Origin: an uncultured Gemmatimonadota bacterium
Lineage (GTDB): Bacteria > JAAXHH01
Assembly: GCA_951812955.1 (NCBI GenBank)
Contig: OX638340.1
Location: 2,272,001 to 2,336,000, forward strand
Length of the DNA stretch: 64,000 bases
Direction: 5' to 3'
Shown: positions 21,092-44,772 of the stretch, piece by piece
Layout: each line of letters opens with the position of its first letter
How positions within the stretch are numbered: position 1 is the first letter of the stretch
The notes under the pieces: generated by a model
Database searches by the model: none
The model's input: the letters and a program-made list of their open reading frames with translations, nothing else
What the model was told of the DNA's origin: nothing
Program-made: the position numbers and the translations under genes

Positions 21092-21266
21092 TATGGACTA
21101 CTTGATCCAGATGCAGCCTACAAATGGTTTTTCAACATCTGATTATGGACTACTTGACGCGACTGATTATGGACTACTTGTGATTATGTACCTTCTGTTC
21201 CAGACGCAGATTAAAATGGGTCCTGGACACGGTTATTCATACCTTCTGGACACGGTTATTCATACC
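21092..21266. repeat. Intergenic short direct repeats. TATGGACTACTTG occurs three times, and a 22-bp unit occurs twice; the second copy contains the stop codon of FtsX-1.
   Basis: The three-copy motif lies at about 21092, 21145 and 21169. The 22-bp copies ggacacggttattcatacct lie at 21221-21243 and 21245-21266. The minus-strand TAA of FtsX-1 is at 21256-21258. Confidence 0.85.
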
Positions 21267-23718: not shown

Positions 23719-23852
23719 GGCGGATCTCCAGCAGCTTAAAACGGGATTTCGTACAGGAAGCAGAAGCCACCCCAACCTTATGCGGACAATATAGTGTTCC
23801 CCTCGACTTTTCGGTACGACATTACAGGCGTAACGCGGCAACCAGGAGCACC

Positions 23853-27029: not shown

Positions 27030-29555
27030 CTACTGTTCCAACAGCATGAAGCTGGTCGTCCTGGTTGCGCGCTGCCCGGAATGCCGGTCCTCAAGCGTCA
27101 CCGCGAGCACATACACACCGGCCGTCAGGTCCGTGGTATCGATCGCCGTGTACTCGGCTTCCTCGGACGTATCGCCCTCGCCCTCATACGACAGAACGAC
27201 GGTCTGCAGGTCGCCGGACCGATCAACCGGACGGCCGCCCGTATCCGGCATGCCCTCGGGTTTGATCTCGTAGTAGGTCTGGTAGGAGGTCCGTCCCGCT
27301 TCGTCTCTGTCCAGGTTATAGATCTCGTAATACACGTACACCAACTGGCCCCGCCCATATGCGCGCAACGGATGCGGCACGATGTTCAGCCCTTTCCTGA
27401 CGAACGATCCGGTCTGGTCGGTCGGCGTTATACCGGTAGACATCTTGAGGCCGCTGATCATCAGATCGCGTCCCTGGTAATCGGGGATGGAAACCGGTTT
27501 CCTGTAGACGCCGATGCGCTGGGAGGTTTCATCCTGCATCTCCACGGCCGCCGTGAACTGTCCCGAAGGCACCAGGACATCGACGGCCAGCGTGTAGGCC
27601 GATACCCGGGCCTGTTCGGAGCTTATCATCCGCTTCGGCCGTTCGATGGGACCGAAGCGGAACTTCTGATTAAGCACCGGCTTGTTTACCGTATCGCGCA
27701 GCGTGGCCTGGTTTCTCAGGAAAGTTTCGTTTCCAAGGCCGTCGGTGACGTCTCCGAACTGCCAGACTGGAAGGCTGTAGACCAGTTCCATTACCGTTTT
27801 CTTGCCGTTCCCCCGGAAAGTGGTGATGTCGAAGGCATAGTCCAGGCCGTCGCCTCCGAAATCGTGCTCGTAGTCTTCCGGGCTACGCTCGATCAGCTGT
27901 TCGGCGATCCGCTGGGGATGATGCATTTCCTCCTTCTGAATTTCGTTGAATGCAGCGTTGTTATCGGGTTCCGTGGAGATCATCAGCGTGCGCAGGGGGT
28001 AGTCGAACCGGCCCCCTCCCATCTGGTCGACGAAGAACAATTCCATGTCGTGCGCCGCGTATACCCAGCTCTCCGACCTGTAAGACGGCCCCATCGCCCG
28101 TCTTTGAACGATCCTGGTTTCGTAGTTGACCTCGGATTGATCATTTAATGAAGACTCTTCTGTGGCTACGTTGTCCGCGGTGAGGTTGTTCACGGTCAGA
28201 AGTGATGCAGCGCCGAAGCCCGCGCGATTCTTCGTGTCCTGTTCCAGCTGGACGGACACCTGTCCCCGGTCCACTTTCAAGCGGTAACCGAACTGCCAGT
28301 TCTTTTCGCGAATGGCGTCCACGGCCGGATTGCCGGTGGGCATGTAGATATCTCTTGGGTCCTCGTATGAGCGGAAGAGAAACCGTCGGCGGTCGTCGGG
28401 CTCGCCATAGCGGACGTATATCTCCCCACGACGGTCGTAGGGGAACCGAGCCGAGGAAAAGTGTATACGTGCATACATCACCCGCTTGTAATGTTCGACC
28501 AGGCGTTCGTTCTCGACCGTGGCTGGATTCGGGTCCCGGGCATTCCAGAAGTCCTGCCACAACCTGTCGCGGGCCGGTCCTTTCGCGGCCTCCCAGGCCG
28601 CCAGCTCGTCGGGAGAAGCCACGTGGGCCAGGTCCCAGTAAATCTCCTGTTCCTCGGACTCAAGCCCCTTGATGTAGGTCTCCAGCGACCGCTGCAGCAG
28701 GTCGTACTGTTTCTTCGAACTCATGGACAGCGCTTCGAACTGCGTCAGCATGGTCCGGATCAGGTCGGGCGTGATACCCTCCATCTCCTCCGCCATCTTC
28801 CGGAGCTGTTCTGCGCCCCGCTCGTAATATTCGAACCGGTGACAGATGCCGGCGAATTTCCGAAGCGTCTCGGGATGGTCCGGATTGACCTGGTACTGTC
28901 TCAGGTAATTAGTCAGCGCCTTGATGTAGTCGTCGTAACGGTCCCTGACGCGCTTCCCGTGGTCCGCCAGCTTCAGTTCCTCGTAACAACGGCCGAGTTG
29001 ATAGAATGCGTCCGGATGCTCGGGATCCAATTCTACAGTCCGCTCAAAGTACGCCCGGCCATCCTGATGACTGCCGATCAGCCAGGCGGTATCGACCTGG
29101 TCCATGTACGTCAGGCCCATGATGTACTGGATCTGGGCGTTTTCGGGATCCAGTCTCATGGCGGTGCGCAACGCCTTCCGGGCATCGAGGCGCCGGTGCG
29201 GCATGCGATTGTATACGAGCCCCAGGCCCATATGGCCAGGTGCCCATTTCCTGTCTCTCCTGACCGCGTGCTTGAAGGCCTTGAGCGCTTCTGCGTCCCT
29301 GTTCAGTGCGAACAGGGCCATGCCGAGCCAGTAGTGGCCGGAAGCACTGTTCTTATTATCCAGTACCGCCTGCTGCAACGGAGGCAGCGCTTCACGGTAC
29401 ATGCCCAGTTCGTAGTAGCGTTTGCCTTCTTCAAGCGATGACTGGCTTGCCAGCCCTGCATCCGGCGGCAAGGCGGACTGGGCCTGCGAGCGACCGAATG
29501 GGACCCACACGGTCAGAATCAGTGCGGCGGTTGAAATGAAACGGAGTGTAGTCAT
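27030..29555 (-). CDS. Secreted TPR-repeat protein with a conserved C-terminal domain resembling the GWxTD family (TPR-1).
   Basis: The start is at the internal MTTLRFISTAALILTVWVPFGRSQAQ signal. It has about 6 TPR units (YWLGMALFAL..., YIMGLTYM...). The C-terminal domain contains FWNARDPNPATVENERLVEHYKRVMYARIHF...PYDRRGEIYVRYGEPDD. This matches the remembered GWxTD-domain pattern with the GWxTD residues substituted. Confidence 0.6.
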   Translation of the reverse strand: MTTLRFISTAALILTVWVPFGRSQAQSALPPDAGLASQSSLEEGKRYYELGMYREALPPLQQAVLDNKNSASGHYWLGMALFALNRDAEALKAFKHAVRRDRKWAPGHMGLGLVYNRMPHRRLDARKALRTAMRLDPENAQIQYIMGLTYMDQVDTAWLIGSHQDGRAYFERTVELDPEHPDAFYQLGRCYEELKLADHGKRVRDRYDDYIKALTNYLRQYQVNPDHPETLRKFAGICHRFEYYERGAEQLRKMAEEMEGITPDLIRTMLTQFEALSMSSKKQYDLLQRSLETYIKGLESEEQEIYWDLAHVASPDELAAWEAAKGPARDRLWQDFWNARDPNPATVENERLVEHYKRVMYARIHFSSARFPYDRRGEIYVRYGEPDDRRRFLFRSYEDPRDIYMPTGNPAVDAIREKNWQFGYRLKVDRGQVSVQLEQDTKNRAGFGAASLLTVNNLTADNVATEESSLNDQSEVNYETRIVQRRAMGPSYRSESWVYAAHDMELFFVDQMGGGRFDYPLRTLMISTEPDNNAAFNEIQKEEMHHPQRIAEQLIERSPEDYEHDFGGDGLDYAFDITTFRGNGKKTVMELVYSLPVWQFGDVTDGLGNETFLRNQATLRDTVNKPVLNQKFRFGPIERPKRMISSEQARVSAYTLAVDVLVPSGQFTAAVEMQDETSQRIGVYRKPVSIPDYQGRDLMISGLKMSTGITPTDQTGSFVRKGLNIVPHPLRAYGRGQLVYVYYEIYNLDRDEAGRTSYQTYYEIKPEGMPDTGGRPVDRSGDLQTVVLSYEGEGDTSEEAEYTAIDTTDLTAGVYVLAVTLEDRHSGQRATRTTSFMLLEQ

Positions 29556-29575
29556 GATCTCTATGTGATAAACCG

Positions 29576-29630
29576 GGTACGGTATGGCCTGCAAGGTACG
29601 GTGTAGCCCGCATGGTACGATATGGCCTGC
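29576..29630. repeat. Three tandem 19-bp direct repeats (GGTACGGTATGGCCTGC-like) about 20-75 nt upstream of the TPR-1 start.
   Basis: Copies lie at 29576-29592, 29595-29611 and 29614-29630, with 2-3 mismatches between them. Confidence 0.8.
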
Positions 29631-29704
29631 GAACAAACTGAACCGTCGATCAAAGCGGCTGTTTCCCCACACGTTCGGCGACGCGGGGAAGACCGAAGAA
29701 AGTC

Positions 29705-32125
29705 CTACCGTTCCATGACCAGGAAGTTGGCTGATTTGGAAACGGTACTTCCCGCGTGCAGGTCGGTAAGCCTGACAGTAAGTATATACTCACCCGCCGG
29801 CAGACCCGAAGTATCCAATGAAGTATACTCACGGTCCTCGGCTGAAGACCCTTCTCCCGCGAAGGCCATCATTACCGTCTGCATGTCTCTTTGCCTGCGG
29901 GCCGACCAGCCACGCCTTTCAGTAACCTCCAGGGGGCTGATCTCGTAGTGGAATTCGTACGCTGTTCTCTTCTCCCTGTCCAGGCTGAGGTTGTATATCT
30001 CGCAGTAAACGTAAACGGGGTTTCCCCGAAGGTAGAGCCGTCCCGGATTGGGCGTGATGTTCAATCCCTTGCGCACAAAGGGGCCCTGTACGCCTGTCGG
30101 AGCGATGATGGTGGCCAACTTGAGATCGCTGATGAGTAATTCTTCGCCGCTGTAATCAGACAGGGTGACTGGCTTGCGATACACTCCGATCCGGCTCGTC
30201 GTCTCGTCCTGCACCTGGACCGCCAGCGTGAAGCGTCCCGCCGGCGCCACGACGCTAGCGGGCAACGAATACACCGGGACATTCACTTGGCTTTCGGCCA
30301 TCGGCCCCTTCGGCCGGTCGAAGGGGCCGAAACCGAACTCGTGGGTGAACTGCGGGCTCATGGTCGAATCACGCAGGGTGACCAGGTGCGCGAGCCGGGT
30401 CCTGATCCCTCTGCCGTCCGACACCTCACCGAACTGCCATATGGGTATGCTGTAGGACAGATCCAGTTCCGTTGCACCGTTGTCCGCCCTGAAACTTACG
30501 GCGTCGAAGGCGTACTCGAGCGGCTCTCCGCCGTAGTCGTGCAGGTATTCCTCCGGGGCTTTGGCGATCAGTTCTTTGGCGAGCCGCCGGGGACTGAACC
30601 TTTCCTGCCGGGCCATCGCCTGCGGGTTGGTAAGCAGGTTGCCCTGGGGGTAATCGAATCGGCCCCCGCCGAACTGGTCGACGAAGAACAGTTCCAGGCC
30701 ATGCCGGACGTATACCCAGCTCTCGGTAGTGTATCCCGCACCCATTTCCTTTCTCTCCCTCTGCAGGTCAAAGACCGCGGATGATGCAACGATTCCGTCG
30801 GCCAGCGTTCCGCCAAGGGAGTCCAGTTCTGCTACAGTTACCCCCTCGGGCGGGACGATCGTCAAATTGCCCCGGTCGACACGCAATTGATAGCCAAACC
30901 GGTTATTCTGCTCTCGGATCGCGTCCACTGCCGCGTCATCGGAAATCGTAGCACTTTGATAGGCAATCCGATCTGCGTTATAGACGTTGCCGCGGCGGTC
31001 TTCCGGTTCACCGTAACGGACGTACATCTCGCCGCGGCGGTCATAGGGGTGCTGTCCCTGTGAAAAATGGTACCGGGCATACATTACGCGACGGTAATGC
31101 GCTACGAGGCGTTCGTTGGTCACGGTGGCGGGATTCGAATCCCTGGCATTCCAGAAGGCATGCCAGCGCGCATCGCGTTCGAGTCCGCCGGCTTCCTTCC
31201 AGGACGCCAGCTCGTCAGGAGTAGCCACGTGCGCCAGATCCCGGTAAACGCGCTGTTCGTCAGGGCCAAGAAGGGAAATGTACGTTTCAAAAATCCCATG
31301 CAGCACATCCGGCCGTGATTTCGAGTCTTCGGAAAGCGTGCTGAATTGCGTAAGCAGGGTCTGGACGATAGCTGAACCCGAATCTTCAAGTTCTGCTCCG
31401 GCATGTTCCAGTAACTCAACGGCCAGACCATACCTTTCGGAAAGAAGGGCCAGATAGACGAAACGGCCGAGTGCGTCGTAATGGCCGGGATTTACCTTGA
31501 ACTGCGAGATATATGCCGCCATCGCCTTGTCGAATTCGGGCGACTCGGGCCGTTCAAAACAACGGCCGATCTGAAAATACGCATCGGGATGGGAAGGATC
31601 CAATACCGCCGCTTTGAGGAAATAGTTCCGGCCGTCCCGGCCGCCACCCAGAATCCGGTCGGTCTTTCGCGGATTCATATGGGCGATTCCGATATGGTAC
31701 TGGATTTCCGGGTCGTCAGGCGCCAGCCTGGCCGCCATACGCAAGGCGTGACGCGCGTCCAGTCTTCGGTATTTCAACTGAATGTAGGACTTGCCCAGCC
31801 CCACGTAGCCTAACGCCAACTTCTCGTCCAGTTCGACTGAACGCTTGAACGAACTTACCGCCTTCCGGTATTGCTCCAACCCGTATTGAGCCATGCCGAG
31901 CCAGTAGTGGGCGGGCGCCGAACCCCCATCAGCCTCGACGGCCTGATTAAAGTACGGCAATGCTTCCGCGAACTTTTCCTGGTCGAATAGCGTCCGGCCC
32001 GCTTCCAGGGGAGTCCGCTGGCCGGTTTCAGCGACTGTATCCGTTGCGGAGGATTGGGCCTGTAGGCGACCCTGCATGAGTAAAACGAGCAGCACCGCTA
32101 CCAGAAGAACAGGGTATCTGGTCAT
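29705..32125 (-). CDS. Secreted TPR-repeat protein with a GWxTD-like C-terminal domain (TPR-2, paralog of 27030..29555).
   Basis: Signal peptide MTRYPVLLVAVLLVLLMQGRLQAQS, then TPR repeats. The C-terminal domain (FWNARDSNPATVTNERLVAHYRRVMYARYHF...PYDRRGEMYVRYGEPED) is co-linear with TPR-1. Confidence 0.6.
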   Translation of the reverse strand: MTRYPVLLVAVLLVLLMQGRLQAQSSATDTVAETGQRTPLEAGRTLFDQEKFAEALPYFNQAVEADGGSAPAHYWLGMAQYGLEQYRKAVSSFKRSVELDEKLALGYVGLGKSYIQLKYRRLDARHALRMAARLAPDDPEIQYHIGIAHMNPRKTDRILGGGRDGRNYFLKAAVLDPSHPDAYFQIGRCFERPESPEFDKAMAAYISQFKVNPGHYDALGRFVYLALLSERYGLAVELLEHAGAELEDSGSAIVQTLLTQFSTLSEDSKSRPDVLHGIFETYISLLGPDEQRVYRDLAHVATPDELASWKEAGGLERDARWHAFWNARDSNPATVTNERLVAHYRRVMYARYHFSQGQHPYDRRGEMYVRYGEPEDRRGNVYNADRIAYQSATISDDAAVDAIREQNNRFGYQLRVDRGNLTIVPPEGVTVAELDSLGGTLADGIVASSAVFDLQRERKEMGAGYTTESWVYVRHGLELFFVDQFGGGRFDYPQGNLLTNPQAMARQERFSPRRLAKELIAKAPEEYLHDYGGEPLEYAFDAVSFRADNGATELDLSYSIPIWQFGEVSDGRGIRTRLAHLVTLRDSTMSPQFTHEFGFGPFDRPKGPMAESQVNVPVYSLPASVVAPAGRFTLAVQVQDETTSRIGVYRKPVTLSDYSGEELLISDLKLATIIAPTGVQGPFVRKGLNITPNPGRLYLRGNPVYVYCEIYNLSLDREKRTAYEFHYEISPLEVTERRGWSARRQRDMQTVMMAFAGEGSSAEDREYTSLDTSGLPAGEYILTVRLTDLHAGSTVSKSANFLVMER

Positions 32126-32630
32126 GCCAAACCAACTTGTAGGGGGAAATGACGAAAAGAGATGGAACCTGCTTTAACAGATCCAGGTAATGCCTGCAAC
32201 CTACCCTTATTCGCGGCCACAGTCAAACAAAAGCGGCCTAATCTCGCCGCAGGGTGTCCGCCGGGTTGAGCATGGCGCTTCGGAAGGTATGCACGCTCAC
32301 GGTGAGCAGGGCGGTGGCCAGGACAACCAGTCCCGCCGCGACGAAAGGCGCAGCACCGATCTCCGTCCGGTAGGCGAAGTCCGCCAGCCACTCGTTCATG
32401 AGCCACCAGGCGGCCGGCCAGGCGAGGACGTTGCCGATCACCACGAGGACGACGAACTGCCTCGACAGCAGGCCGACTATATCTGAGACCGCGGCGCCCA
32501 TCACCTTGCGGATGCCGACTTCCCGCGTGCGGCGCGCGATGTCCAGCGACACGAGTCCATATACACCCAGGCAGGCGATCAGCAGGGCGAATACCGCGGA
32601 ATAGGTGAAAATGCGCGCAAGGTTGGCTTC
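31970..32630. repeat. Segment about 97% identical to 36903..37565. It covers the TPR-2 5-prime end, the intergenic region and the FtsX 3-prime end.
   Basis: Direct alignment of the two stretches shows only scattered mismatches across 660 bp. Divergence begins upstream of about 32630 and 37565. Confidence 0.85.
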
Positions 32631-34610
32631 ACCCTCGTAGAATCGGGCGATGTCGTCATCAAGGAAGGAATACTCGAAAAGCGATTCCGGGGCGATCTCC
32701 ATCCATGCCGCTCTCAACAGATCCAACGTGGCAGGCAGGTCCCGCCCGCTGACGCGTACCAGGAGGAAATTAACACCACCCTGGGTTTCCTCCCCGAAGG
32801 AAGCGGGATTCATCGTCAGGATTACCGGCTCTATTTCTTGATGCATCGACTGGTAGTGGTAGTCCTCCAACACGCCGATGACCGTATATCCGTGGGGCAG
32901 GGTCCGTCCGAGGGGGTCGTCCCATTCCATCACCCTGGCCGCGGCTTGGTTGATTATACATGACCCGGATTCGTCGTTGCCGAACTCCCGGGAAAAATCT
33001 CGTCCTGAGACCAGGTTCAGCTCTAGCGCCTTCACGTAATCGTAATCCACCGTGAACATATATGCTTCAAGCTTGTTCCCGTCCTTATCTGTATAGGCGG
33101 ACTGACCCAGGCCCCGACCGAAGGTGTTGGAAGCTCCCGTCACCAGGATTACGTTCTCATACGAGTTTATCCTGGATTTATAGACGTCCGCGGAGTTGGA
33201 ATTGGGCCCCATGTGGATGACGATGACGTTTTCCTTGTTGTATCCCAGATCTGTGTTCATGACGAAGTCCAACTGTCGGGTCATGACGAGTATGGAAACA
33301 ACGAGTAAGGCAGACAGGCCGAACTGGACGACCATCAGGCCGCGGATAACCAGGTTTGGGCTCCCGATCCGAACCTGATGTCTGAATACGGCAACGGGAT
33401 TGAAACGGGAGAGGATCAGGGCGGGATAGCTCCCGGACGCCAGGGCAACCAGGCCAGTCAACACTAGTAGCGCGGCGATCGTAGAGCCGTTGGAGAGATA
33501 ATCTAGGACGTATGAGCTTCCCGCCAGCGTGTTGAATACAGGAAGAAACAGGTGGGCCAGGATAACGCCTAAGATGAGGGCGAAGCAACTCAACACCGCG
33601 GTCTCACCCAGGAACTGTTTCATGATCTGGGTTTTCTGCGCACCGAACACCTTCCGCAGTCCAACCTCCCTGGCGCGCGAAGACGATCGGCAGAAGGCCA
33701 GGTTCATGAAATTCACGCAGGCGATGAAAAGAACGAAAAGCGCCGTGCAAATCAGTATGTAAGACCTGTTGGGATCGCTCGTGGTACCCTGGCCAAACCT
33801 CACACCCTGAGCAAGATACATGTCCGTTAAAGGCTGCAATTCCAGGTATGGCGATCCCATCTGTGAAAAATGAGTCTCGACAAAACCCGGCAACTGGTTT
33901 TCAAGCATGTCTGCCATTTCCGGATCCGACAGCTCGACGTAGGTTGAGGAGACACTGTAGTTCCAATTGCCGATCGCCTGATTCGTCCAGTTGTCGATAG
34001 CAAACATTTTGTCGAAGGGGATCAGGAAATCGAACCGTATGCTGGAATTAACCGGAGTGTTCTCTGCTACCCCGGCCACCAAAAACGGTTCACCTCGTAT
34101 CGTGAGTTGCCTGCCCAGGGGGCTTCCCGTCCCAAAATACTTCTCGGCGGCGGACTGGCTGATCACCACCGAGTTCAGTTCGTTCAGGACCGTCCCGGGA
34201 TCACCTTCGATCAATGGGAAGGAGAACACGCTGAATATCGATGGATCGCTATACAGAACGTGTTCTTCCCGGAACACATCATTACCAACACGGACTTCCG
34301 CCCCTCCGGTGGTTCGTATTCGCACGGTCTGTTCGACGCCGGGATACTGTTCCTTAAAGGCAGCGGCAAGTGGAAGAGGGGTAATCCCACTGGTATATAA
34401 GTTATCCTCGAAACCTGATCCACCGACGTTGACCCGGTAGATCCGGTCCGCCTTCTCGTGAAAGGCGTCGTAGGTCCACTCCTGGCGCACGAAGAGAAAT
34501 ACGAGGAGGCTGCAGGCGATGCCGGTGGACAGGCCCAGCGTGTTGATGAAGAAGTAGCCCTTGTTGCCGAACAGGTGCCGAAACGCGATGACAAGGTGGT
34601 TTTTCAGCAT
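32238..34610 (-). CDS. ABC-transporter FtsX/MacB-type permease (FtsX-2).
   Basis: 790 aa beginning MLKNHLVIAFRHLFGNKGYFFINTLGLSTGIACSLLVFLFV.... It has two FtsX blocks. Its last roughly 130 aa are identical to FtsX-3. Confidence 0.85.
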   Translation of the reverse strand: MLKNHLVIAFRHLFGNKGYFFINTLGLSTGIACSLLVFLFVRQEWTYDAFHEKADRIYRVNVGGSGFEDNLYTSGITPLPLAAAFKEQYPGVEQTVRIRTTGGAEVRVGNDVFREEHVLYSDPSIFSVFSFPLIEGDPGTVLNELNSVVISQSAAEKYFGTGSPLGRQLTIRGEPFLVAGVAENTPVNSSIRFDFLIPFDKMFAIDNWTNQAIGNWNYSVSSTYVELSDPEMADMLENQLPGFVETHFSQMGSPYLELQPLTDMYLAQGVRFGQGTTSDPNRSYILICTALFVLFIACVNFMNLAFCRSSSRAREVGLRKVFGAQKTQIMKQFLGETAVLSCFALILGVILAHLFLPVFNTLAGSSYVLDYLSNGSTIAALLVLTGLVALASGSYPALILSRFNPVAVFRHQVRIGSPNLVIRGLMVVQFGLSALLVVSILVMTRQLDFVMNTDLGYNKENVIVIHMGPNSNSADVYKSRINSYENVILVTGASNTFGRGLGQSAYTDKDGNKLEAYMFTVDYDYVKALELNLVSGRDFSREFGNDESGSCIINQAAARVMEWDDPLGRTLPHGYTVIGVLEDYHYQSMHQEIEPVILTMNPASFGEETQGGVNFLLVRVSGRDLPATLDLLRAAWMEIAPESLFEYSFLDDDIARFYEGEANLARIFTYSAVFALLIACLGVYGLVSLDIARRTREVGIRKVMGAAVSDIVGLLSRQFVVLVVIGNVLAWPAAWWLMNEWLADFAYRTEIGAAPFVAAGLVVLATALLTVSVHTFRSAMLNPADTLRRD

Positions 34611-34686
34611 GATCGTTTTGCCTCCTGTCGCTTACGAGCTGTAAGCCGGAAAACGTTCCTGAGGAAACACGATCTTGGAATGGCAA

Positions 34687-34719
34687 AGGGGATCTACGGT
34701 TTCGACCCGTCGATCCCCT
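34687..34719. other. Hairpin with an 8-bp stem (AGGGGATC / GATCCCCT) and a 17-nt loop, between Big_2-1 and FtsX-2. It is repeated at 39617-39649 with a 9-bp stem.
   Basis: Sequence aggggatctacggtttcgacccgtcgatcccct. There is no strong U-tract, so it could be a weak terminator for the Big_2 gene or a regulatory element for the FtsX gene. Confidence 0.35.
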
Positions 34720-34779
34720 GAAAAGTTGCATGTTGGTAACTATTGCGATGCCGGAACTTACGTAGTGCATTCCCGACTG

Positions 34780-36381
34780 TCAGTCAACGACAAACGTGTT
34801 TTCACTACGGCGAAAACTCCTATCATCGCCAAACGAAACATCATAAACCAGTCTATACTCACCGGCGACTTCCGGATCGTATGGGCAAGCGTCGAATTCC
34901 ACCCGTGTGGCCTCGATGTCTTCCCATGTACTGCCCATATCGTCGCTTCGCTGCCATACGGAGTAATGGACCGTCATGGGGATACCTAACGGCTGAGTTG
35001 GGTAGTTGTTTAGTTCAGCACGAAAGAGTGAACTTGCACAGTATTCTATAGTTATAGGAGTATATCCTGGTCCCGTGAATATCAACTTACCGGGCTCGAC
35101 CTTCCAACCTTCCCACGGGACATAGACTATCTCGTCGACTGGCTCGTCGACGCCTTCGCCGCCATCCCCGCCATCCCCGCCTTCACCACCTTCCCCTTCA
35201 GTCGGAACCATGACCGTGATACTCACCATGGCCGACACGTCGCCGGACGCGGCCGTGACTACGGCCATGCCGTTGCCCACCGCTTCTACCAATCCATCCT
35301 CGTCCACGGTGATCACGTTTTCGTCACCGCTCGTCCACGTGACGGCCGGTTCGGCAATGGCATTGTCGTTCCCGTCGCTGACGGAAACCATGAGTTGCAG
35401 GGTCTGTTCGATCTCGGTCAGCGTGGTGGCATCGGGTGCGACCTCGATGCTGATGCCGGCCGGAACCTGGGCGACGGTGATCGACGCAGTCCCCATAGCG
35501 TCTCCGGCCTGTGCCGTGATCTCCGCCATGCCGTTGTCCACCGCGGTCACAAGCCCGTTCTCGTCCACGGTGGCCACGGCGTCATCGGCGCTTGACCAGG
35601 TCACCATCACGTCCTCCATCGCGTTTTCGTGCTGGTCCAGCACGACGGCCGCGAGTTCCACGGTGTCGCCGATCGCTTCCAGCGTGTGCGCAGCGGGCTC
35701 GATCGTCAGGCTCGTCGGCACGGATACGGATACCGTGATGGACGCACTGGCGGACAGGCTGCCGGATGTGGCCGTGATCTCAGCCATCCCGTTACTCACC
35801 GCCGTTACAAGGCCCGCCCCGCTCACGGTCGCCACGGCGTCGTCGCCGCTCGACCAGGTGATGGACTGGCCGGACATGATGTTGTTCCGCTGATCCCGCA
35901 CCGTAGCCGACAACTGTACCGTTTCCCCGATCGCCTTCAGCGTATGGGACGTCGGTGCGACCGTGATCCGGGTCGGCACCGGCTCGGCCACCGTGATGTT
36001 CGCAGTGCCCGTCGCGTTGCCGGACTGCGCCCTTATTTGCGCGGCGCCGTTGGCCACGGCCGTCACCAGGCCATTTCCGCTGACAGTCGCCACCGCGGTA
36101 TTGCTGCTCGACCAAGTCACCGCCTGGCCGGTCATCGGATTGTTGTTCTGGTCCCTCACCATGGCCATCAGTTGCACGGTCGCGCCAATCGTCGCCAGCG
36201 TGTGCGAAGACGGCGTGACAGAAATGCTCGTCGCAACGGGCGCAGGCGGTGGAGCAGGCGGGGTCGGTGTGGACGGCTCGGGACTCGTCGGGCTGCTGTC
36301 CCCGCCACCGCATCCCGCCAGAAAAACCAGGTACAAGGATGCCGTGATCTTGGCGAACACGCGACTGTATGGACCAAACAC
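34780..36381 (-). CDS. Surface lipoprotein with four Big_2 (bacterial Ig-like group 2) domains, a Gly/Glu/Asp linker and an unclassified roughly 125-aa Cys-containing C-terminal domain (Big2-1).
   Basis: GTG start with an AAGGAG ribosome-binding site. It begins MFGPYSRVFAKITASLYLVFLAGCGGGDSS (lipobox), followed by a Pro/Thr linker. Four repeats carry the Big_2 signature (..TVQL.A.V.DQ.NN.M.GQ..TWSS....VATV...GLVTAV.NG.A.I.A..). The C-terminal domain reads VPWEG...CASSL...VHYSVWQRSDDMGSTWEDIE...DACPY.PEVAGEYRLV. Confidence 0.8.
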   Translation of the reverse strand: MFGPYSRVFAKITASLYLVFLAGCGGGDSSPTSPEPSTPTPPAPPPAPVATSISVTPSSHTLATIGATVQLMAMVRDQNNNPMTGQAVTWSSSNTAVATVSGNGLVTAVANGAAQIRAQSGNATGTANITVAEPVPTRITVAPTSHTLKAIGETVQLSATVRDQRNNIMSGQSITWSSGDDAVATVSGAGLVTAVSNGMAEITATSGSLSASASITVSVSVPTSLTIEPAAHTLEAIGDTVELAAVVLDQHENAMEDVMVTWSSADDAVATVDENGLVTAVDNGMAEITAQAGDAMGTASITVAQVPAGISIEVAPDATTLTEIEQTLQLMVSVSDGNDNAIAEPAVTWTSGDENVITVDEDGLVEAVGNGMAVVTAASGDVSAMVSITVMVPTEGEGGEGGDGGDGGEGVDEPVDEIVYVPWEGWKVEPGKLIFTGPGYTPITIEYCASSLFRAELNNYPTQPLGIPMTVHYSVWQRSDDMGSTWEDIEATRVEFDACPYDPEVAGEYRLVYDVSFGDDRSFRRSENTFVVD

Positions 36382-36463
36382 TGCTGTCTCCTTTCGGCTA
36401 ATTACTGAAAAGCGGTTCGTTGTAATCTACCGTTCTTGATCTCGATGAACAGATTATCTGACT

Positions 36464-37057
36464 TCATGCACGCAGGCCCTTCATACTCTCCCGGGCCGCT
36501 TCGAGGGTCCGGTCGATGTCTTCTTCGGTATGGGCCAGGGACACAAACCCCGTTTCAAGGCGCGAAGGCGCCAGGTAGACGCCCCGGTCCAGCATATTCC
36601 AGAAGTATCGCCCGTACGTATCCGCGTCTGACGTGGAAGCTGCATCGAAATTGTTGACGGTCTGATCTGTGAAGAAGGTACACATCATGGAGCCCACACG
36701 GGTCAGGCAGGCCGGGACGCCGGCCGCTTCCGCCGCGGCGCGAAGGCCGTCGCCGAGGCGGGCGGCCAGGGATTCCAGCCGGTCGTAGACCCCGGGTTCC
36801 TGAAGCTGCCGCACCGTTTCATATCCAGCGGTCATGGCAAGCGGATTGCCGGACAGCGTGCCGGCCTGGTAAACCTCACCGGCGGGCGCCACGGTTTCCA
36901 TGAACTTTTCCTGGTCGAATAGCGCACGTCCCGCTTCCAGGGGAGTCCGCTGGCCGGTTTCAGCGACTGTATCATCTGCGGTGGATTGGGCCTGGAGGCG
37001 ACCCTGCATGAGAAAAACGAGCAGGACCGCTACCAGAAGTACAGGGTATCTGGTCAT
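36464..37057 (-). pseudogene. Chimeric in-frame ORF. The TPR-2-type promoter, ribosome-binding site and signal peptide (50 codons) are fused to the C-terminal 147 codons of hemL. It is the junction product of the tandem segmental duplication.
   Basis: The N-terminus MTRYPVLLVAVLLVFLMQGRLQAQSTADDTVAETGQRTPLEAGRALFDQEKF equals the start of the 29705..32125 gene. The remainder, METVAPAGEVYQAGTLSGNPLAMTAGYETV...MKGLRA, equals the end of the 41855..43144 hemL gene. The breakpoint is at about 36903. Confidence 0.7.
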
Positions 37058-37169
37058 GGCAAACCAACTCGTAGGGGGAAATGACGGAAAGAAATGGAAC
37101 CTGCTTTAACATATGCAGGTAATGCCTGCAACCTACCCTTATTCGCGGCCTCAGTCAAACAAATGCGGC

Positions 37170-39541
37170 CTACTCGCTCCGCAGGGTGTCCGCCGGGTTG
37201 AGCATAGCGCTTCGGAAAGTATGCACGCTCACGGTGAGCAGGGCGGTGGCCAGGACAACTAGTCCCGCCGCGACGAAAGGCGCAGCACCGATCTCCGTCC
37301 GGTAGGCGAAGTCCGCCAGCCACTCGTTCATGAGCCACCAGGCGGCCGGCCAGGCCAGGACGTTGCCGATCACCACGAGGACGACGAACTGCCTCGACAG
37401 CAGGCCGACTATATCTGAGACCGCGGCGCCCATCACCTTGCGGATGCCGACTTCCCGCGTGCGGCGCGCGATGTCCAGCGACACGAGTCCATATACGCCG
37501 AGGCAGGCGATCAGCAGGGCGAATACCGCGGAATAGGTGAAAATCAGCGCCAGGTTGTTCTCATCCTGGTAGAACCGTTCTATATCGTCTTCCATGAAGA
37601 AATACTCGTAGGGCGTCTCAGGCGCTGTCCCCTTCCACGCGTCCTCGAGCAGGGAAAGCGTGGTTGGCAGATCCCTGCCGCTGACCCGGACCAGGAGGAA
37701 GCCGTAACTGACCGAAGTGTTACCCATGGATGTGGGATTGAGGGAGAGTATAATCGGATCGATCTCCTGGTGCAGCGACTGGAAATGGAAGTCCTTGACT
37801 ACGCCGATTACCGTATACCCATGGGGCAGTTTGCGCCCGATCGGATCTTCCCATTCCAGCTTCTTTGCCGCGGCCTCGTTGATGATGCACGATTGGAACT
37901 CGTCGTTTACGAATTCGCTGGAAAAATCACGGCCACGGACGAGGTTCAGTTCAAGCGTCTCCAGGTAATCGCGGTCCACGGTCGCCATGAACGCTTCCAG
38001 CTTGTTTCCGTCCGGTCGGTGTAGGCAACCTGGGGCAAGAAATGCCCCTGACCAAAGGTGCTGGAAGTGCCGGAAACCAGGAGTATGTCTTCGTACGGTA
38101 TCACTTTGCTGCGAAAGATCTCCAGGTCGTTTGAATTGAAGGGGGCCTGGATGACTACCACGTTGTGCGGGTTGAACCCCAAATCCCCCGTCCGCACAAA
38201 GTCCAGCTGCCGGGTCATGATGAGAATTGAAATGACGAGCAACGCGGACAACCCGAACTGCACGACCATCAAGCCGCGCACGAAGAGATTCGGCCCTCCG
38301 ATCTGAACCTGTTGCCGGAAGATGGTGACGGGGTTGTAGTGTGAGAGCACCAGGGAAGGATAACTGCCGGAAACCAGGGCGACCAGCACGGTCAAACCCG
38401 TCAGCGCGGCCAGCGTGGATCCGTTCGTCAGGTAGTCCAGCACGAGGGACTTTCCCGCCAGCATATTGAAAACCGGAAGGAACAGGTGGGCCAGGGCCAC
38501 GCTCAGCACCAGGGCGAAGCAGCACAGCGCCGCGGTTTCGCCCAAGTGCTGTCCCATGATCTGGGTTCGGCGCGCGCCGTAAACTTTCCTGACACCGACC
38601 TCTTTCACACGCGAAGACGAACGGCAGACGGCCAGGTTCATGAAGTTGACGCAGGCGATGAATAGTACGAGCAGCGCCGTGCAAATCAGGATGTAGGACC
38701 GGTTGGGATCGCTGGTGGGACCCAGCCCGAATTTGACTTCCTGATCCAGGTAGATATCGGTGATGGGTTGCAGGATCAGATAGGGCGACGAGTAGGCCGG
38801 GAAATGGGTTTCGACGAATTCCGGCAGTTGACTGAGGAGCGATTCTACTCGATCCGGATCCCCGAGTTCGATGAAAGTGGCCGTGGACGAATAGTTCCAC
38901 TTTCCGATGGCATTCGATATCCAGGGGTTTATTTCCGGCGCCTTGTCAAAGGGTATGAGCAGGTCGAACCGAATACTGGAGTTATCCGGTCCGTTCTCCG
39001 CGACGCCGGTTACGGTCAGCGGAATGCCCTGTACCAGGAGCGTCCTGCCCGTCGGAGACTCCTGGCCGAAGTACTTCGCCGCGGCGGATTTGCTGACGAC
39101 CACTGAATTCGCCTCGCCGAGGGCCGTACCGGGATCGCCTTCGATCATCGTGAAGGAGAACATCTCGAAGAAGGACGGATCGCAGAAAAGGGCGTTCTCC
39201 TTGCGGAACGTATCTTCTCCGATGCGAATATCGGATGGATATTCCGTTATGCGCACGGTCCGGACCACGTCGGGATATTGCTGCTCCAGGGTAGCCGCGA
39301 GCGGGAGGGGAGTTCTCGCGCTTATGAACGGGTTGTCGTCGAAATCCACTCCACCGGCTGCGACCTGGTAGATCCGGTCCGATTTCTCGTGGAAGGCGTC
39401 GTAGGTCCACTCGTGGCGGACGAAGAGAAAGATCAGGAGGCAGCACGCGATACCGGTCGACAGGCCAAAAGTATTGATGAAGAAATAACCCTTGTTGGCG
39501 AACAGGTACCGCAACGCGATGACGAGGTTGTTTTTCACCAT
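37170..39541 (-). pseudogene. FtsX/MacB-type permease paralog (FtsX-3) disrupted by a single-nucleotide deletion near 38012.
   Basis: The N-terminal 531-aa ORF (37946..39541) and the C-terminal ORF (37170..38900) overlap in different frames. Restoring one G in cgggac (expected AYTDRDGNKLEA, as in FtsX-2 AYTDKDGNKLEA) gives a continuous roughly 790-aa protein. This could be a real pseudogene or a homopolymer sequencing error. Confidence 0.7.
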
Positions 39542-39708
39542 GATCGTATTGCCTCCTGTCGCTTACGCATGCAAGCAGGAAAACGCACCTGGGGAAAGAC
39601 GATCCTGCAATGGCAAAGGGGATCTACGGTTTCGACCCGTCGATCCCCTTAAAGGTTGCATGTTGGTAACTATTGCGATTGGGAACTTACGTTGTGCATT
39701 CCTGACTG

Positions 39709-41772
39709 TCAGGGGATGACAAACGTATTCTCACTACGGCGAAAACTCCTATCATCGTCAAGCGAAATATCACCAACCAGTCTATACTCACCGGCGACTT
39801 CCGGATTGTATGGGCAAGCGTCGAATTCCACCCGTGTGTCCTCGATGTCTTCCCATGTACTGCCCATATCGTCGCTTCGCTGCCATACGGAGTAATGGAC
39901 CGTAATGGTGACACCTAACGGAGTTGGGCGGTTGTTTAGTTCTCCACCTAAGAGTGAACTTGCGCAGTTTACTATAGGTATTGTAGCAAGTCCTGGGACC
40001 GTAAAAACCAACCGACCGGGCTCGACCCGCACACCTTCCCACGGGACGTAGGTGACTTCATCCACCGTAATGGTCACCGTGATGCTCACCATGGCCGACA
40101 CGTCGCCGGACGCGGCCGTAACTTCGGTCATGCCGTTGCCCACAGCTTCTACCAACCCATCCTCGTCCACGGTGACCACGTTCTCGTCACCGCTCGTCCA
40201 CGTGACGGCCGGTTCGGCAATGGCATTGTCGTTCCCGTCGCTGACGGAAACCATGAGTTGCAGGGTCTGTTCGATCTCGGTCAGCGTGGTGGCATCGGGT
40301 GCGACCTCGATGCTGATGCCGGCCGGAACCTGGGCGACGGTGATCGACGCAGTCCCCATAGCGCCTCCGGCCTGGGCCGTGATCTCCGCCATGCCGTTGT
40401 CCACCGCGGTGACCACGCCGTTCTCGTCCACGGTGGCCACGGCGTCGTCGCCGCTCGACCAGGTCACCATCACGTCCTCCATCGCGTTTTCGTGCTGGTC
40501 CAGTACGACGGCCGCGAGTTCCACGGTGTCGCCGATCGCTCCCAGCGTGTGCGCGGCTGGCTCGATCGTGATGCTCGTTGCCACGGGCTCGGATATCACC
40601 ATGACCGTGATACTCACCATGGCCGATACGTCGCCGGATGCGGCCGTAACTGCGGCCATGCCGTTCCCCACCGCTTCTACCAAACCATCCTCGTCCACGG
40701 TGGCCACGTTTTCGTCACCGCTCGTCCACGTGACGGCCGGTTCGGCAATGGCATTGTCGTTCCCGTCGCTGACGGAAACCATGAGTTGCAGGGTCTGTTC
40801 GATCTCGGTCAGCGTGGTGGCATCGGGTGCGACCTCGATGCTGATGCCGGCCGGAACCTGGGCGACGGTGATCGACGCAGTCCCCATAGCGTCTCCGGCC
40901 TGTGCCGTGATCTCCGCCATGCCGTTGTCCACCGCGGTCACAAGCCCGTTCTCGTCCACGGTGGCCACGGCGTCATCGGCGCTTGACCAGGTCACCATCA
41001 CGTCCTCCATCGCGTTTTCGTGCTGGTCCAGCACGACGGCCGCGAGTTCCACGGTGTCGCCGATCGCTTCCAGCGTGTGCGCAGCGGGCTCGATCGTCAG
41101 GCTCGTCGGCACGGATACGGATACCGTGATGGACGCACTGGCGGACAGGCTGCCGGATGTGGCCGTGATCTCAGCCATCCCGTTACTCACCGCCGTTACA
41201 AGGCCCGCCCCGCTCACGGTCGCCACGGCGTCGTCGCCGCTCGACCAGGTGATGGACTGGCCGGACATGATGTTGTTCCGCTGATCCCGCACCGTAGCCG
41301 ACAACTGTACCGTTTCCCCGATCGCCTTCAGCGTATGGGACGTCGGTGCGACCGTGATCCGGGTCGGCACCGGCTCGGCCACCGTGATGTTCGCAGTGCC
41401 CGTCGCGTTGCCGGACTGCGCCCTTATTTGCGCGGCGCCGTTGGCCACGGCCGTCACCAGGCCATTTCCGCTGACAGTCGCCACCGCGGTATTGCTGCTC
41501 GACCAAGTCACCGCCTGGCCGGTCATCGGATTGTTGTTCTGGTCCCTCACCATGGCCATCAGTTGCACGGTCGCGCCAATCGTCGCCAGCGTGTGCGAAG
41601 ACGGCGTGACAGAAATGCTCGTCGCAACGGGCGCAGGCGGTGGAGCAGGCGGGGTCGGTGTGGACGGCTCGGGACTCGTCGGGCTGCTGTCCCCGCCACC
41701 GCATCCCGCCAGAAAAACCAGGTACAAGGATGCCGTGATCTTGGCGAACACGCGACTGTATGGACCAAACAC
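39709..41772 (-). CDS. Surface lipoprotein with six Big_2 domains and a diverged copy of the same C-terminal domain (Big2-2).
   Basis: The first roughly 410 aa are identical to Big2-1. Two extra Big_2 domains from an internal tandem duplication (about 40060-40600 versus 40600-41160) follow. The C-terminal domain is about 75% identical to that of Big2-1. Confidence 0.8.
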   Translation of the reverse strand: MFGPYSRVFAKITASLYLVFLAGCGGGDSSPTSPEPSTPTPPAPPPAPVATSISVTPSSHTLATIGATVQLMAMVRDQNNNPMTGQAVTWSSSNTAVATVSGNGLVTAVANGAAQIRAQSGNATGTANITVAEPVPTRITVAPTSHTLKAIGETVQLSATVRDQRNNIMSGQSITWSSGDDAVATVSGAGLVTAVSNGMAEITATSGSLSASASITVSVSVPTSLTIEPAAHTLEAIGDTVELAAVVLDQHENAMEDVMVTWSSADDAVATVDENGLVTAVDNGMAEITAQAGDAMGTASITVAQVPAGISIEVAPDATTLTEIEQTLQLMVSVSDGNDNAIAEPAVTWTSGDENVATVDEDGLVEAVGNGMAAVTAASGDVSAMVSITVMVISEPVATSITIEPAAHTLGAIGDTVELAAVVLDQHENAMEDVMVTWSSGDDAVATVDENGVVTAVDNGMAEITAQAGGAMGTASITVAQVPAGISIEVAPDATTLTEIEQTLQLMVSVSDGNDNAIAEPAVTWTSGDENVVTVDEDGLVEAVGNGMTEVTAASGDVSAMVSITVTITVDEVTYVPWEGVRVEPGRLVFTVPGLATIPIVNCASSLLGGELNNRPTPLGVTITVHYSVWQRSDDMGSTWEDIEDTRVEFDACPYNPEVAGEYRLVGDISLDDDRSFRRSENTFVIP

Positions 41773-41854
41773 TGCTGTCTCCTTTCGGCTAATTACTGAA
41801 AAGCGGTTCGTTGTAATCTACCGTTCTTGATCTCGATGAACAGATTATCTGACT

Positions 41855-43144
41855 TCATGCACGCAGGCCCTTCATACTCTCCCGGGCCGCTTCGAGGGTC
41901 CGGTCGATGTCTTCTTCGGTATGGGCCAGGGACACAAACCCCGTTTCAAGGCGCGAAGGCGCCAGGTAGACGCCCCGGTCCAGCATATTCCAGAAGTATC
42001 GCCCGTACGTATCCGCGTCTGACGTGGAAGCTGCATCGAAATTGTTGACGGTCTGATCTGTGAAGAAGGTACACATCATGGAGCCCACACGGGTCAGGCA
42101 GGCCGGGACGCCGGCCGCTTCCGCCGCGGCGCGAAGGCCGTCGCCGAGGCGGGCGGCCAGGGATTCCAGCCGGTCGTAGACCCCGGGTTCCTGAAGCTGC
42201 CGCACCGTTTCATATCCAGCGGTCATGGCAAGCGGATTGCCGGACAGCGTGCCGGCCTGGTAAACCTCACCGGCGGGCGCCACGGTTTCCATGATTTCCC
42301 TGCGACCGCCATAGGCCCCCACGGGAAGTCCTCCCCCGATGATCTTGCCCAGGCAGGTCATGTCGGCCGAGATGCCGAATCGTTCCTGCGCTCCGCCGAA
42401 TGCGATCCTGAATCCCGTGATGACCTCGTCAAAAATCAGAATGATCCCCCGCTTCTCCGTCTCTTCCCGAATGGTTTCGAGAAAGCCTTCGGCCGGAGGG
42501 ATCATGCCCATGTTGCCGGCGACCGGCTCTACGATCACGCAGGCGACGTCGCCGCCCCGCTCCGCCAGGGTGCGCCGGACGGCCTCGACGTCGTTGTAGG
42601 GTAGATTGATGGTCATCTTCGCCAGGTCCGCAGGCACGCCGGGACTGTCGGGGATGCCGAATGTCGCGGCGCCGGAACCGGCCTGGATGAGAAAGCTGTC
42701 TCCGTGGCCGTGGTATCCCGCCTCGAATTTGACCGCCAGGTCGCGCCCCGTGTATCCGCGGGCGACGCGCAGGGCGCTCATGGTCGCTTCCGTGCCGGAG
42801 TTGACCATGCGTATCAGGTCGATGGACGGGAAGGCGGTCCTGACCAGTTCCGCCAGCCTGATCTCGGCTTCGGTGGGCGTGCCGAAACTCGTACCCCGTT
42901 CACAGGCCTTCTTCAGGGCCTCGACCACGGCGGGATGGCCGTGGCCCAGGATCAGCGGTCCCCAGGATCCCAGGTAATCGATGTACTCGTTGCCGTCCAC
43001 GTCGTAGACCCTGGAACCCGCGCCCCGGTCCATGAAGACGGGGCTTCCTCCAACCCGCCCGAAATTCCGCACGGGGCTGTTCACCCCGCCGGGCATGGAT
43101 CGCTGGGCCTGGTCGAAGAGGGTACTGGATCGGGAACGGTTCAT
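41855..43144 (-). CDS. hemL: Glutamate-1-semialdehyde 2,1-aminomutase.
   Basis: 429 aa. MNRSRSSTLFDQAQRSMPGGVNSPVR...GSWGPLILGH... is an aminotransferase class III protein with the typical HemL N-terminus. Confidence 0.9.
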   Translation of the reverse strand: MNRSRSSTLFDQAQRSMPGGVNSPVRNFGRVGGSPVFMDRGAGSRVYDVDGNEYIDYLGSWGPLILGHGHPAVVEALKKACERGTSFGTPTEAEIRLAELVRTAFPSIDLIRMVNSGTEATMSALRVARGYTGRDLAVKFEAGYHGHGDSFLIQAGSGAATFGIPDSPGVPADLAKMTINLPYNDVEAVRRTLAERGGDVACVIVEPVAGNMGMIPPAEGFLETIREETEKRGIILIFDEVITGFRIAFGGAQERFGISADMTCLGKIIGGGLPVGAYGGRREIMETVAPAGEVYQAGTLSGNPLAMTAGYETVRQLQEPGVYDRLESLAARLGDGLRAAAEAAGVPACLTRVGSMMCTFFTDQTVNNFDAASTSDADTYGRYFWNMLDRGVYLAPSRLETGFVSLAHTEEDIDRTLEAARESMKGLRA

Positions 43145-44154: not shown

Positions 44155-44772
44155 TCAGTACCCCCCGCAGTTGGCGCAACCGCCGCTGTCAAATCCGTTC
44201 AAAGCACTGCAGCGTTCACACTGGAACAGGAGATGCCCGGCGTCTATGGACCGTGACGCCATCAAATTCAGCGCCGTCGCCCGGAGTTTCGAGGGCACGA
44301 TGATCCTCGCCGACTCGTCCGAACATGGACCGGTAAGCAGGCCGGAGTCCTGCTTGGTCGAGAACACCCGGCTGTCCACACCCTGCTGTGCGAGGAAACG
44401 CTGGTAGCTCAGCGCTTCACGGTCTTCGGCCCGATAGAGGATTTCCTCCTTCGGAAACTCTTCTACCAATCCATGTCTTTCACAGAAATACCGGCCATGA
44501 CGGCGTATCCCGCAGTCCTCGCACACGTGCCGTCCGCAGACGACGCACAGGCCGTGCGCAGGTCCGGCCGGATGGTTCAGGCATCGAAGATCGTCGATGA
44601 ATACTGTGCCGCAGACCGGGCAGGACCCCAGGTCGCCCGGGATCTCCTCCTTGCACTCGTCGCAAACCCACGTCGACACCTCATTCAGGGCGTTAACCAG
44701 GGTGGACGCGCAGATAGGGCATTTTTCCTCGCCGCGGGCGTATTCACATTCGCATTCCGGGCAGAAAGGCAT
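44155..44772 (-). CDS. Multi-zinc-ribbon (CxxC-rich) protein of unknown function, embedded in the heme operon.
   Basis: 205 aa with at least 8 CxxC pairs (MPFCPECECEY...CPICAS...CDECKEE...CPVCGT...CVVCGRHVCEDCG...CERCSA...CANCGGY). It lies 26 nt upstream of hemB and 195 nt downstream of cobA/hemD. Confidence 0.5.
   Translation of the reverse strand: MPFCPECECEYARGEEKCPICASTLVNALNEVSTWVCDECKEEIPGDLGSCPVCGTVFIDDLRCLNHPAGPAHGLCVVCGRHVCEDCGIRRHGRYFCERHGLVEEFPKEEILYRAEDREALSYQRFLAQQGVDSRVFSTKQDSGLLTGPCSDESARIIVPSKLRATALNLMASRSIDAGHLLFQCERCSALNGFDSGGCANCGGY

Follow-up and report, generated by a model that had tools for sequence, protein, structure and literature searches.

Among described surface proteins, the closest counterparts of the genes treated here would be LigA and LigB of Leptospira, by functional analogy and not by membership. 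These two proteins are paralogs that arose by partial duplication, with recombination between lineages (PMC7821625, PMC10534446), and the pair is identical from position -266 to position +1890, in the seventh Big_2 domain, after which the paralogs diverge (PMC7821625). A pair of comparable design is present in a 64,000-nucleotide (nt) stretch of DNA from an uncultured Gemmatimonadota bacterium (GenBank assembly GCA_951812955.1, contig OX638340.1, forward-strand positions 2,272,001 to 2,336,000), hereafter the window, in which two genes for Big_2 lipoproteins have the same 5' portion and end in diverged C-terminal domains (CTDs). The two genes are paralogs, the product of a tandem segmental duplication in which a conserved cassette of the chromosome was copied through an illegitimate join between hemL and a TPR gene. 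This kind of event is well understood and reveals no new kind of system; what is new is the uncurated domain family to which the CTDs belong.

Self-BLAST and a 100-nt identity profile place both lipoprotein genes inside a tandem duplication of about 5 kb, whose other duplicated genes had escaped the first-pass annotation of this DNA. Positions 31964 to 35125 match 36896 to 40051 at 78% identity and positions 35207 to 36913 match 40598 to 42302 at 99.4%, the repeat as a whole extending, by self-comparison, over 31964-36913 and 36896-42302. Read in gene orientation, the order is intact hemL, lipoprotein copy 2, a frameshifted permease gene, a chimeric open reading frame (ORF) of 197 amino acids (aa), lipoprotein copy 1, an intact permease gene, and the gene for an 806-aa TPR/GWxTD protein. 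At the junction of the units (36903|36904), hemL is joined at about nt 840 to the TPR gene at about nt 160, and the parental sequences have only 2 bp (GA) in common, a microhomology that sits within an imperfect 8-mer (TTCCATGA versus TTCCGCGA, 6/8 matching). A hemL-TPR join of this type, with 2 bp of microhomology, is the signature of a tandem duplication by illegitimate recombination. The chimeric ORF across the junction keeps the start region of the TPR gene itself; it matches Pfam Aminotran_3 only in its C-terminal part, and tblastn resolves it into TPR residues 1-56 and HemL residues 281-429. It is probably a by-product of the duplication, and it could be transcribed, with read-through into lipoprotein copy 1.

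Identity between the two units is mosaic (Table 1). At the 5' end of the lipoprotein genes, 1,590 nt are the same without a mismatch, a tract that comprises nt 1-1068 of the Big_2 gene and, ahead of the start codon, a further 522 nt (the intergenic spacer and the hemL 3' fragment) and whose end coincides exactly with the duplication junction. As the identical N-terminus is one end of a tract that runs over noncoding DNA and a hemL pseudogene fragment and stops at the junction, it points to duplication and gene conversion and not to selection on a trafficking domain. In the proteins, the first 356 aa (1068 nt) are identical and 392 aa are common with 2 substitutions; the identical region that had been reported before is thus real, and its extent is shorter than the 410 aa given for it. 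At the opposite end of the units, the TPR remnant and the intergenic DNA have diverged from the real copy by 6-7%, and even so the two are mutual nearest relatives.

Two strain haplotypes of a single-copy locus, strung in series by the assembler and equalized in their common part by polishing, could in principle look like this. The units carry different allele classes, as coexisting strains would, consensus polishing could yield the exact 1,590-nt identity, and the junction was seen in no second assembly: its 26-mer was not found in JGI metagenome contigs, and searches for exact matches to the chimeric ORF, copy 1, hemL, and copy 2 returned no record. However, concatenated haplotypes normally join at homologous sequence, and neither k-mer nor overlap assembly would make a hemL-TPR join with 2 bp in common unless there were reads containing it. 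Lipoprotein copy 2 is identical to a protein of a representative library (P0004) that is recorded on one contig of 3,813,436 bp, which suggests a long-read, chromosome-level metagenome-assembled genome (MAG), as contigs of 3.81 Mb are typical of long-read assemblies, with reads spanning 5 kb. The divergence of the TPR remnant and intergenic DNA from their nearest relative is also that of a real, ageing duplicate. Because an assembler cannot create the adjacency at the junction from sequence overlap, we consider such an artifact unlikely.

To place the duplication in context, we compared the cassette with its relatives. A CTD profile recovered 13 loci, among them a short one (L014) added by a second metagenome scan, in MAGs labelled Gemmatimonadetes or Latescibacterota, several of which are chromosomes of 3.7 to 3.96 Mb; record names and isolate codes suggest that the hosts of these MAGs are sponges and corals. 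The duplicated state was found in this genome only, the cassette being single copy in 13/13 related loci, and the order hemB, hemL, Big_2/CTD lipoprotein, permease, and TPR/GWxTD is present once in all 12 loci with enough flanking sequence, as well as in L014. Across the genomes of the relatives, protein identity is 90 to 95% for HemL, about 70 to 82% for the permease, and 38 to 68% for the CTD. The middle of the lipoprotein varies as well: some orthologs have three Big_2 domains and an LRR block, others have four or five Big_2 domains, and a database homolog has many more. Given this variation, the difference between four and six Big_2 domains in the window, as counted in the first-pass annotation and in agreement with Pfam, is normal for the family. 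In one relative (L001, 9860-10207) the orthologous CTD is split by a frameshift that leaves a 68-aa ORF, and in another (L002, about 1180-1310) a run of N in the Big_2 array marks where a short-read assembly broke in the repeats; cases like these mean that public annotations of this lipoprotein family are often fragmented.

The permease genes reveal a different history for each part of the units. Over codons 31-680, copy 1 groups with the orthologs of L011 and L012 in 470 of 500 bootstraps (94%) and with copy 2 in 0/500, and the two copies are kept apart by a split with 100% support. Over the last 113 aa, in contrast, the two copies are sisters in 454/500 bootstraps (91%). L011 and L012 are the relatives most distant from the window in hemL plus hemB (84.5% nucleotide identity), the closest being L004 (93.7%). 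Synonymous divergence (dS) between the permease copies is 1.26, compared with 0.26 for hemL between the window and L004 and 0.85 between the most distant species compared, while the ratio of nonsynonymous to synonymous divergence (dN/dS, or omega) is 0.19. A dS this high together with such an omega indicates old alleles that were both functional for most of their history, and not recent divergence in place. Copy 2 has a 1-nt deletion at about 38012-38016 relative to copy 1 and to all orthologs, outside any homopolymer, which splits the gene into overlapping ORFs of 531 and 576 aa; this would make it a pseudogene at an early stage, unless the deletion is an error of sequencing.

These data also bear on a simpler history, in which the duplicated genes diverged in place, with positive selection on their 3' halves and no import. 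The two CTDs are each other's nearest relatives (76%) and their omega is raised, as that history would have it, and for the CTD alone it is possible. For the permease, however, it is rejected over 32700-34500, as the copies are never sisters over most of the gene and their dS exceeds that between the most distant species under an omega that is low, and as an account of the whole locus we find it quite improbable.

The reading that we prefer, and regard as probable, is an illegitimate tandem duplication of about 5 kb that was later modified by conversion, import, repeat change, and a frameshift, at a locus coding for an adhesin-like, lipid-anchored Ig stalk with a tip. The duplication would be somewhat younger than the split from L004, with a background divergence between the units of about 5 to 10%. 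Homologous recombination would then have brought into copy 1 a permease allele of about 2 kb related to that of a distant lineage, and a recent gene conversion would have homogenized the 5' 1,590 nt up to the limit of homology. An internal 528-bp duplication would have given lipoprotein copy 2 two more Big_2 domains, and a frameshift would have arisen in the now redundant copy-2 permease. An alternative order of events is a very recent duplication followed by several imports.

Exchange of alleles is not restricted to the window. Distances of the CTD and of the permease are uncorrelated across the clade (Mantel r = 0.14, p = 0.11), and coevolution of the CTD with the periplasmic domains of the permease was rejected on that p value. 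The CTD of L002 is 97% identical to that of L006, while the permeases closest to its own are those of L005 and L007; in comparisons of L009 with L010 and of L002 with L006 and L008, near-identical permeases (97%) go with unrelated CTD alleles in some cases, and the reverse holds in others. Such mismatches imply that recombination breakpoints between the two genes recur across the clade. Orthologs differ in the number of Big_2 domains, in LRR content, and in CTD alleles, and the whole locus is a recombination hotspot, hypervariable across the clade.

A dedicated system for antigenic or phase variation, in which the copies exchange their 3' segments by programmed gene conversion in the manner of donor cassettes, would account for the clear conversion tract between the copies (there is at least one), for the upstream region common to both, and for a locus that is mosaic throughout the clade. 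Against this, the locus has just two copies, each of full length and with its start codon, and silent cassettes arrayed alongside are missing; the vicinity contains neither a recombinase nor an invertible element; a single copy suffices in 13/13 relatives; and it was the conserved part that was converted, not the variable one. We judge a system of this kind to be decidedly improbable.

Turning to the proteins themselves, Pfam Big_2 (PF02368) matches copy 1 in four stretches with 157 bits and copy 2 in six stretches with 213 bits, over a cutoff of 22.8. Both begin with a predicted lipoprotein signal (...LVFLAGC; MFGPYSRVFAKITASLYLVFLAGC) that has LAGC at residues 21-24 and, by the same inspection of the pattern ([LVI][ASTVI][GAS]C, applied by eye), ILAGC in the orthologs. 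The two additional domains of copy 2 come from an internal tandem repeat, in which D3D4 and D5D6 are the same at 487/528 nt (92%) and 161/176 aa, with a longest perfect run of 180 nt; the duplication that the first-pass annotation had described as near perfect is real, and its copies are more diverged than that description implies. An acidic Gly/Glu/Asp linker (GEGGEGGDGGDGGEG), which of the two copies only copy 1 has, separates the CTD from the last Big_2 domain and is encoded by a 9-bp tandem repeat (CGCCTTCCC x5 on the plus strand, 35151-35196). L001 and the database protein P0006 have acidic linkers of a similar kind, and linker length is therefore another variable feature.

The CTD had been noted at first reading as matching no recognized family, and this view was borne out: there is no Pfam match at E of ≤1, no NCBIfam match at E of ≤0.1, and no PDB sequence match to the CTD profile. 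A profile built from five close sequences nevertheless retrieved 294 cluster representatives at E of ≤1e-3, and 72 at E of ≤1e-10, from 1.84 billion proteins, while a word-indexed protein search with the broad alignment A2 returned only 7 proteins. The consensus is Y.PLEGLRV..G...F......C......YTVH.SKWQRR.D..S.W.DI.GTE..G..C.Y.P...GEYRLV..ITIDG.RG.YSSENTFTV. Within 31 sequences C85 is invariant and conservation of C34 is at least 90%. The domain is probably stabilized by a disulfide. In about half of the matches the domain forms the extreme C-terminus, and 2 to 5 copies are present in some proteins. The partner domains are Big_2, He_PIG, Big_9, PKD, LRR, NHL propellers, FGE-sulfatase, and CARDB, which are typical extracellular modules.

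An AlphaFold model of the CTD from the 31-sequence alignment has a predicted local distance difference test (pLDDT) value of 93.2 and a predicted template modeling (pTM) score of 0.85, compared with a pLDDT of 48 from the 5-sequence alignment, and it superposes on Ig and FN3 domains as an Ig-like beta-sandwich. A Foldseek search with the model, one of the checks proposed in the first-pass annotation, gave no significant match, either to the PDB or to viral models. Judging from the model, the CTD is an undescribed family that would consist of a generic Ig/FN3-like core with an N-terminal extension of about 45 residues, and it is neither a toxin nor an enzyme. Its two versions are as diverged as had been estimated by eye (about 75%; measured, 75 to 76%). 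The dN/dS that had likewise been proposed is 0.66 (dS of 0.21, 50 substitutions), which is elevated over the 0.13 to 0.33 of ortholog pairs (Fisher p = 0.005 against the L006-L008 pair) but stays below 1, and this value is consistent with selection that is relaxed or diversifying, or with an N-terminal half of mosaic origin.

Each lipoprotein would be a lipid-anchored stalk of Big_2 Ig-like domains with a tip domain of about 110 aa at its distal end, and through the duplication the cell would have stalks of two lengths and tips of two kinds, preceded by the same upstream sequence. By analogy with known adhesins, the tip most likely binds a ligand, as part of an adhesin or of a host- or matrix-contact protein of a sponge- or coral-associated bacterium.

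Two other roles for the CTD were weighed against a ligand-binding tip. Its frequent terminal position could be that of a C-terminal sorting signal, like the cargo domain of the type IX secretion system (T9SS), and not of a binding module. The Pfam and NCBIfam libraries include the T9SS models PF18962 (Por_Secre_tail) and TIGR04183, and two conserved cysteines are not, to our knowledge, a feature of T9SS C-terminal domains. Since the CTD has no match in these libraries at the thresholds given above, is also found internally in 2 to 5 copies, and belongs to proteins that already have a lipoprotein signal, a sorting function is very unlikely. Scarcely credible is a polymorphic effector or toxin, with a constant N-terminal delivery region and interchangeable C-terminal effector modules, which the identical N-termini, the diverged C-termini, and the raised CTD omega recall superficially, but which is at odds with a CTD that matches no toxin or enzyme family (Pfam, NCBIfam, PDB sequence), is modeled as a plain Ig/FN3-like sandwich, is the ancestral C-terminus of every ortholog (13/13 loci), and has internal tandem copies in other proteins, with an N-terminal identity that reaches into a pseudogene fragment, and with a gene neighborhood in which there is no small immunity-like ORF and the next gene is a conserved 790-aa permease whose alleles do not track those of the CTD. 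The first-pass annotation had likened the pair to surface-variation or polymorphic effector architectures; the former stands in a loose sense, for a hypervariable and recombining locus, and the latter is not supported, in view of the 1,590-nt tract, the Ig-like CTD, and the missing immunity-like gene.

The remainder of the cassette is as follows. A functional link between permease and lipoprotein is suggested by their conserved adjacency alone, their alleles being reshuffled independently. In the more distant context of L013, the CTD-family gene has no permease neighbor and only mobile-element genes around it, so that the pairing of lipoprotein and permease is a feature of this clade and not of the CTD family. 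The spacer between the two genes contains a hairpin (AAGGGGATCGACGGGTCGAAACCGTAGATCCCCTT; about -21 kcal/mol) with a stem of 13 bp, after which comes a short T-run. The hairpin is almost invariant in 14/14 sequences (both copies and L001 to L012, from the lipoprotein stop to the permease start), while the surrounding spacer varies, and the window contains just these two copies of it. An Rfam scan of 31900-42400 gave no family, hairpin included, and scans for promoter and terminator consensus sequences did not exceed chance expectation; the hairpin may be a terminator, an attenuator, or a processing site upstream of the permease. The 806-aa protein matches GWxTD (TIGR04514) at residues 294-380 with 49.8 bits, over a cutoff of 28; a literature search for GWxTD found nothing.

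Table 1. Features of the duplicated region, by window position, and identity between the two duplication units along it
Feature	Position	Strand	Description	Basis
Duplication unit 1, promoter-distal	31964-36903	-	hemL 3' fragment, Big_2 lipoprotein copy 1, intact permease copy 1, 5' end of the real TPR/GWxTD gene	self-BLAST, 100-nt identity profile
Duplication unit 2, adjoining intact hemL	36904-42294	-	hemL 3' end, Big_2 lipoprotein copy 2, frameshifted permease copy 2, TPR 5' remnant	
Perfectly identical tract, unit-1 copy	35314-36903	-		base-by-base extension from start codons
Perfectly identical tract, unit-2 copy	40705-42294	-		base-by-base extension from start codons
Intact hemL	41855-43144	-	glutamate-1-semialdehyde aminomutase-type Aminotran_3; last ~440 nt inside the duplicated unit	
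Big_2 lipoprotein copy 1, 533 aa	34780-36381	-	lipobox LAGC, Pro-rich linker, 4 Big_2 domains, acidic Gly/Glu/Asp linker, CTD	
Big_2 lipoprotein copy 2, 687 aa	39709-41772	-	N-terminus as copy 1, 6 Big_2 domains, short linker, CTD	
Internal 528-bp tandem repeat in copy 2	40057-41112	-	D5D6 40057-40584, D3D4 40585-41112	
CTD copy 1, 119 aa	34783-35139	-	unclassified Ig/FN3-like beta-sandwich family (predicted), conserved Cys C34 and C85	
CTD copy 2, 118 aa	39712-40065	-	75-76% identical to copy 1	
Permease copy 1, 790 aa, intact	32238-34610	-	MacB_PCD x2 + FtsX x2, ADOP-like; codons ~30-680 of the L011/L012 allele class	
Permease copy 2, frameshifted	37170-39541	-	allele class of L002-L005/L007/L009/L010	
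Conserved 35-nt hairpin, first copy	34686-34720	-	lipoprotein-permease spacer	
Conserved 35-nt hairpin, second copy	39616-39650	-	lipoprotein-permease spacer	
Chimeric in-frame ORF, 197 aa	36464-37057	-	~52 aa of TPR/GWxTD N-terminus (signal-peptide-like) + ~145 aa of HemL C-terminus	
TPR + GWxTD-domain protein, 806 aa	29705-32125	-	third cassette gene; first ~160 nt inside the duplicated unit	
Identity: TPR 5' end + spacer			93%	
Identity: last ~340 nt of permease			98-99%	
Identity: rest of permease			56-74% (permease ~66%)	
Identity: permease 5' end, spacer, CTD 3' half			84-96%	
Identity: CTD 5' half, then 528-bp indel			about 75%	
Identity: last 108 nt of Big_2 domain 4			92%	
Identity: 1,590-nt tract	35314-36903 = 40705-42294		100%	

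Directly downstream of the cassette lies an older paralog of the TPR/GWxTD-type protein (27030-29672, minus strand, 45% aa identity, with only TPR repeats in Pfam), and L007 likewise has two genes of this type. A further duplicated MacB_PCD/FtsX permease is found about 8 kb away (21256-23859, minus strand, 33% aa identity). Both families have expanded repeatedly in this genome. On the other side, between hemB and a cobA/hemD-like gene, there is a Cys-rich ORF of 205 aa with many CxxC pairs (44155-44772, minus strand) and no Pfam match; L001 has a gene of the same size in the same position, also with no Pfam match.

The locus offers a clean and datable case of how a surface-protein locus diversifies, through illegitimate duplication, conversion, import, repeat change, and the onset of permease decay. 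The CTD family, with hundreds of members and a confidently predicted structure, is missing from Pfam and NCBIfam and is a candidate for curation; attached as it is to LRR, Big_2, and NHL surface proteins, it is also a candidate for host-interaction work in sponge and coral symbionts. A bolder reading, which we put forward as doubtful, is that lipoprotein, permease, and GWxTD/TPR protein make up an unrecognized, fast-evolving surface module of invertebrate-associated, Latescibacterota- or Gemmatimonadota-like symbionts, in which the tip of the new family would determine which ligand of a host or phage is recognized, species would exchange alleles by recombination, and two specificities would have been captured here by duplication of the cassette.

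Several described systems resemble parts of this cassette. With its two MacB_PCD and two FtsX domains, the neighboring gene resembles the type VII ABC permeases of the MacB/FtsX kind and the ADOP family (TIGR03434), to whose model it aligns over positions 5-803 of 803 (E = 4e-87). Its score is 293 bits versus a curated cutoff of 622, and on sequence we take it for a relative of TIGR03434 and not a called member; like the "orphan" permeases, it has no ATPase gene adjacent to it. Intimin/invasin-type adhesins use a rod of bacterial Ig-like domains to present a distal C-terminal binding domain, and one protein of the CTD family has a weak NCBIfam similarity to intimin through its Big_2 domains. 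However, those adhesins have a beta-barrel anchor and a C-type-lectin-like tip, where the proteins described here have a predicted lipid anchor and a beta-sandwich, and the window lipoproteins are not members of that group. A domain census reports sponge-associated Latescibacterota MAGs to be rich in LRR, TPR, and FN3 proteins (PMC12993501); the LRR blocks between Big_2 and CTD in some orthologs and the TPR protein of the cassette agree with that picture, while the locus, the CTD, and the duplication are not described there.

The comparison with LigA and LigB rests on the type of domain and on the pattern of identity between paralogs. It has its limits, as the C-terminal extension of LigB has been described with putative Big_5 domains, whereas the CTD is another, unclassified domain and Pfam gave no Big_5 match in either window protein; the duplication reported here is in tandem and took a permease gene along; and Leptospira are pathogens of vertebrates, while the organisms of this clade are probably symbionts of invertebrates. 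As for the parallels, both pairs are lipoproteins built of tandem Big_2 domains (PF02368) that arose by partial duplication, one of the Lig paralogs likewise has a distinct C-terminal region, and the identity of the pair described here, running from -522 to +1068, also ends inside a Big_2 domain, the fourth.

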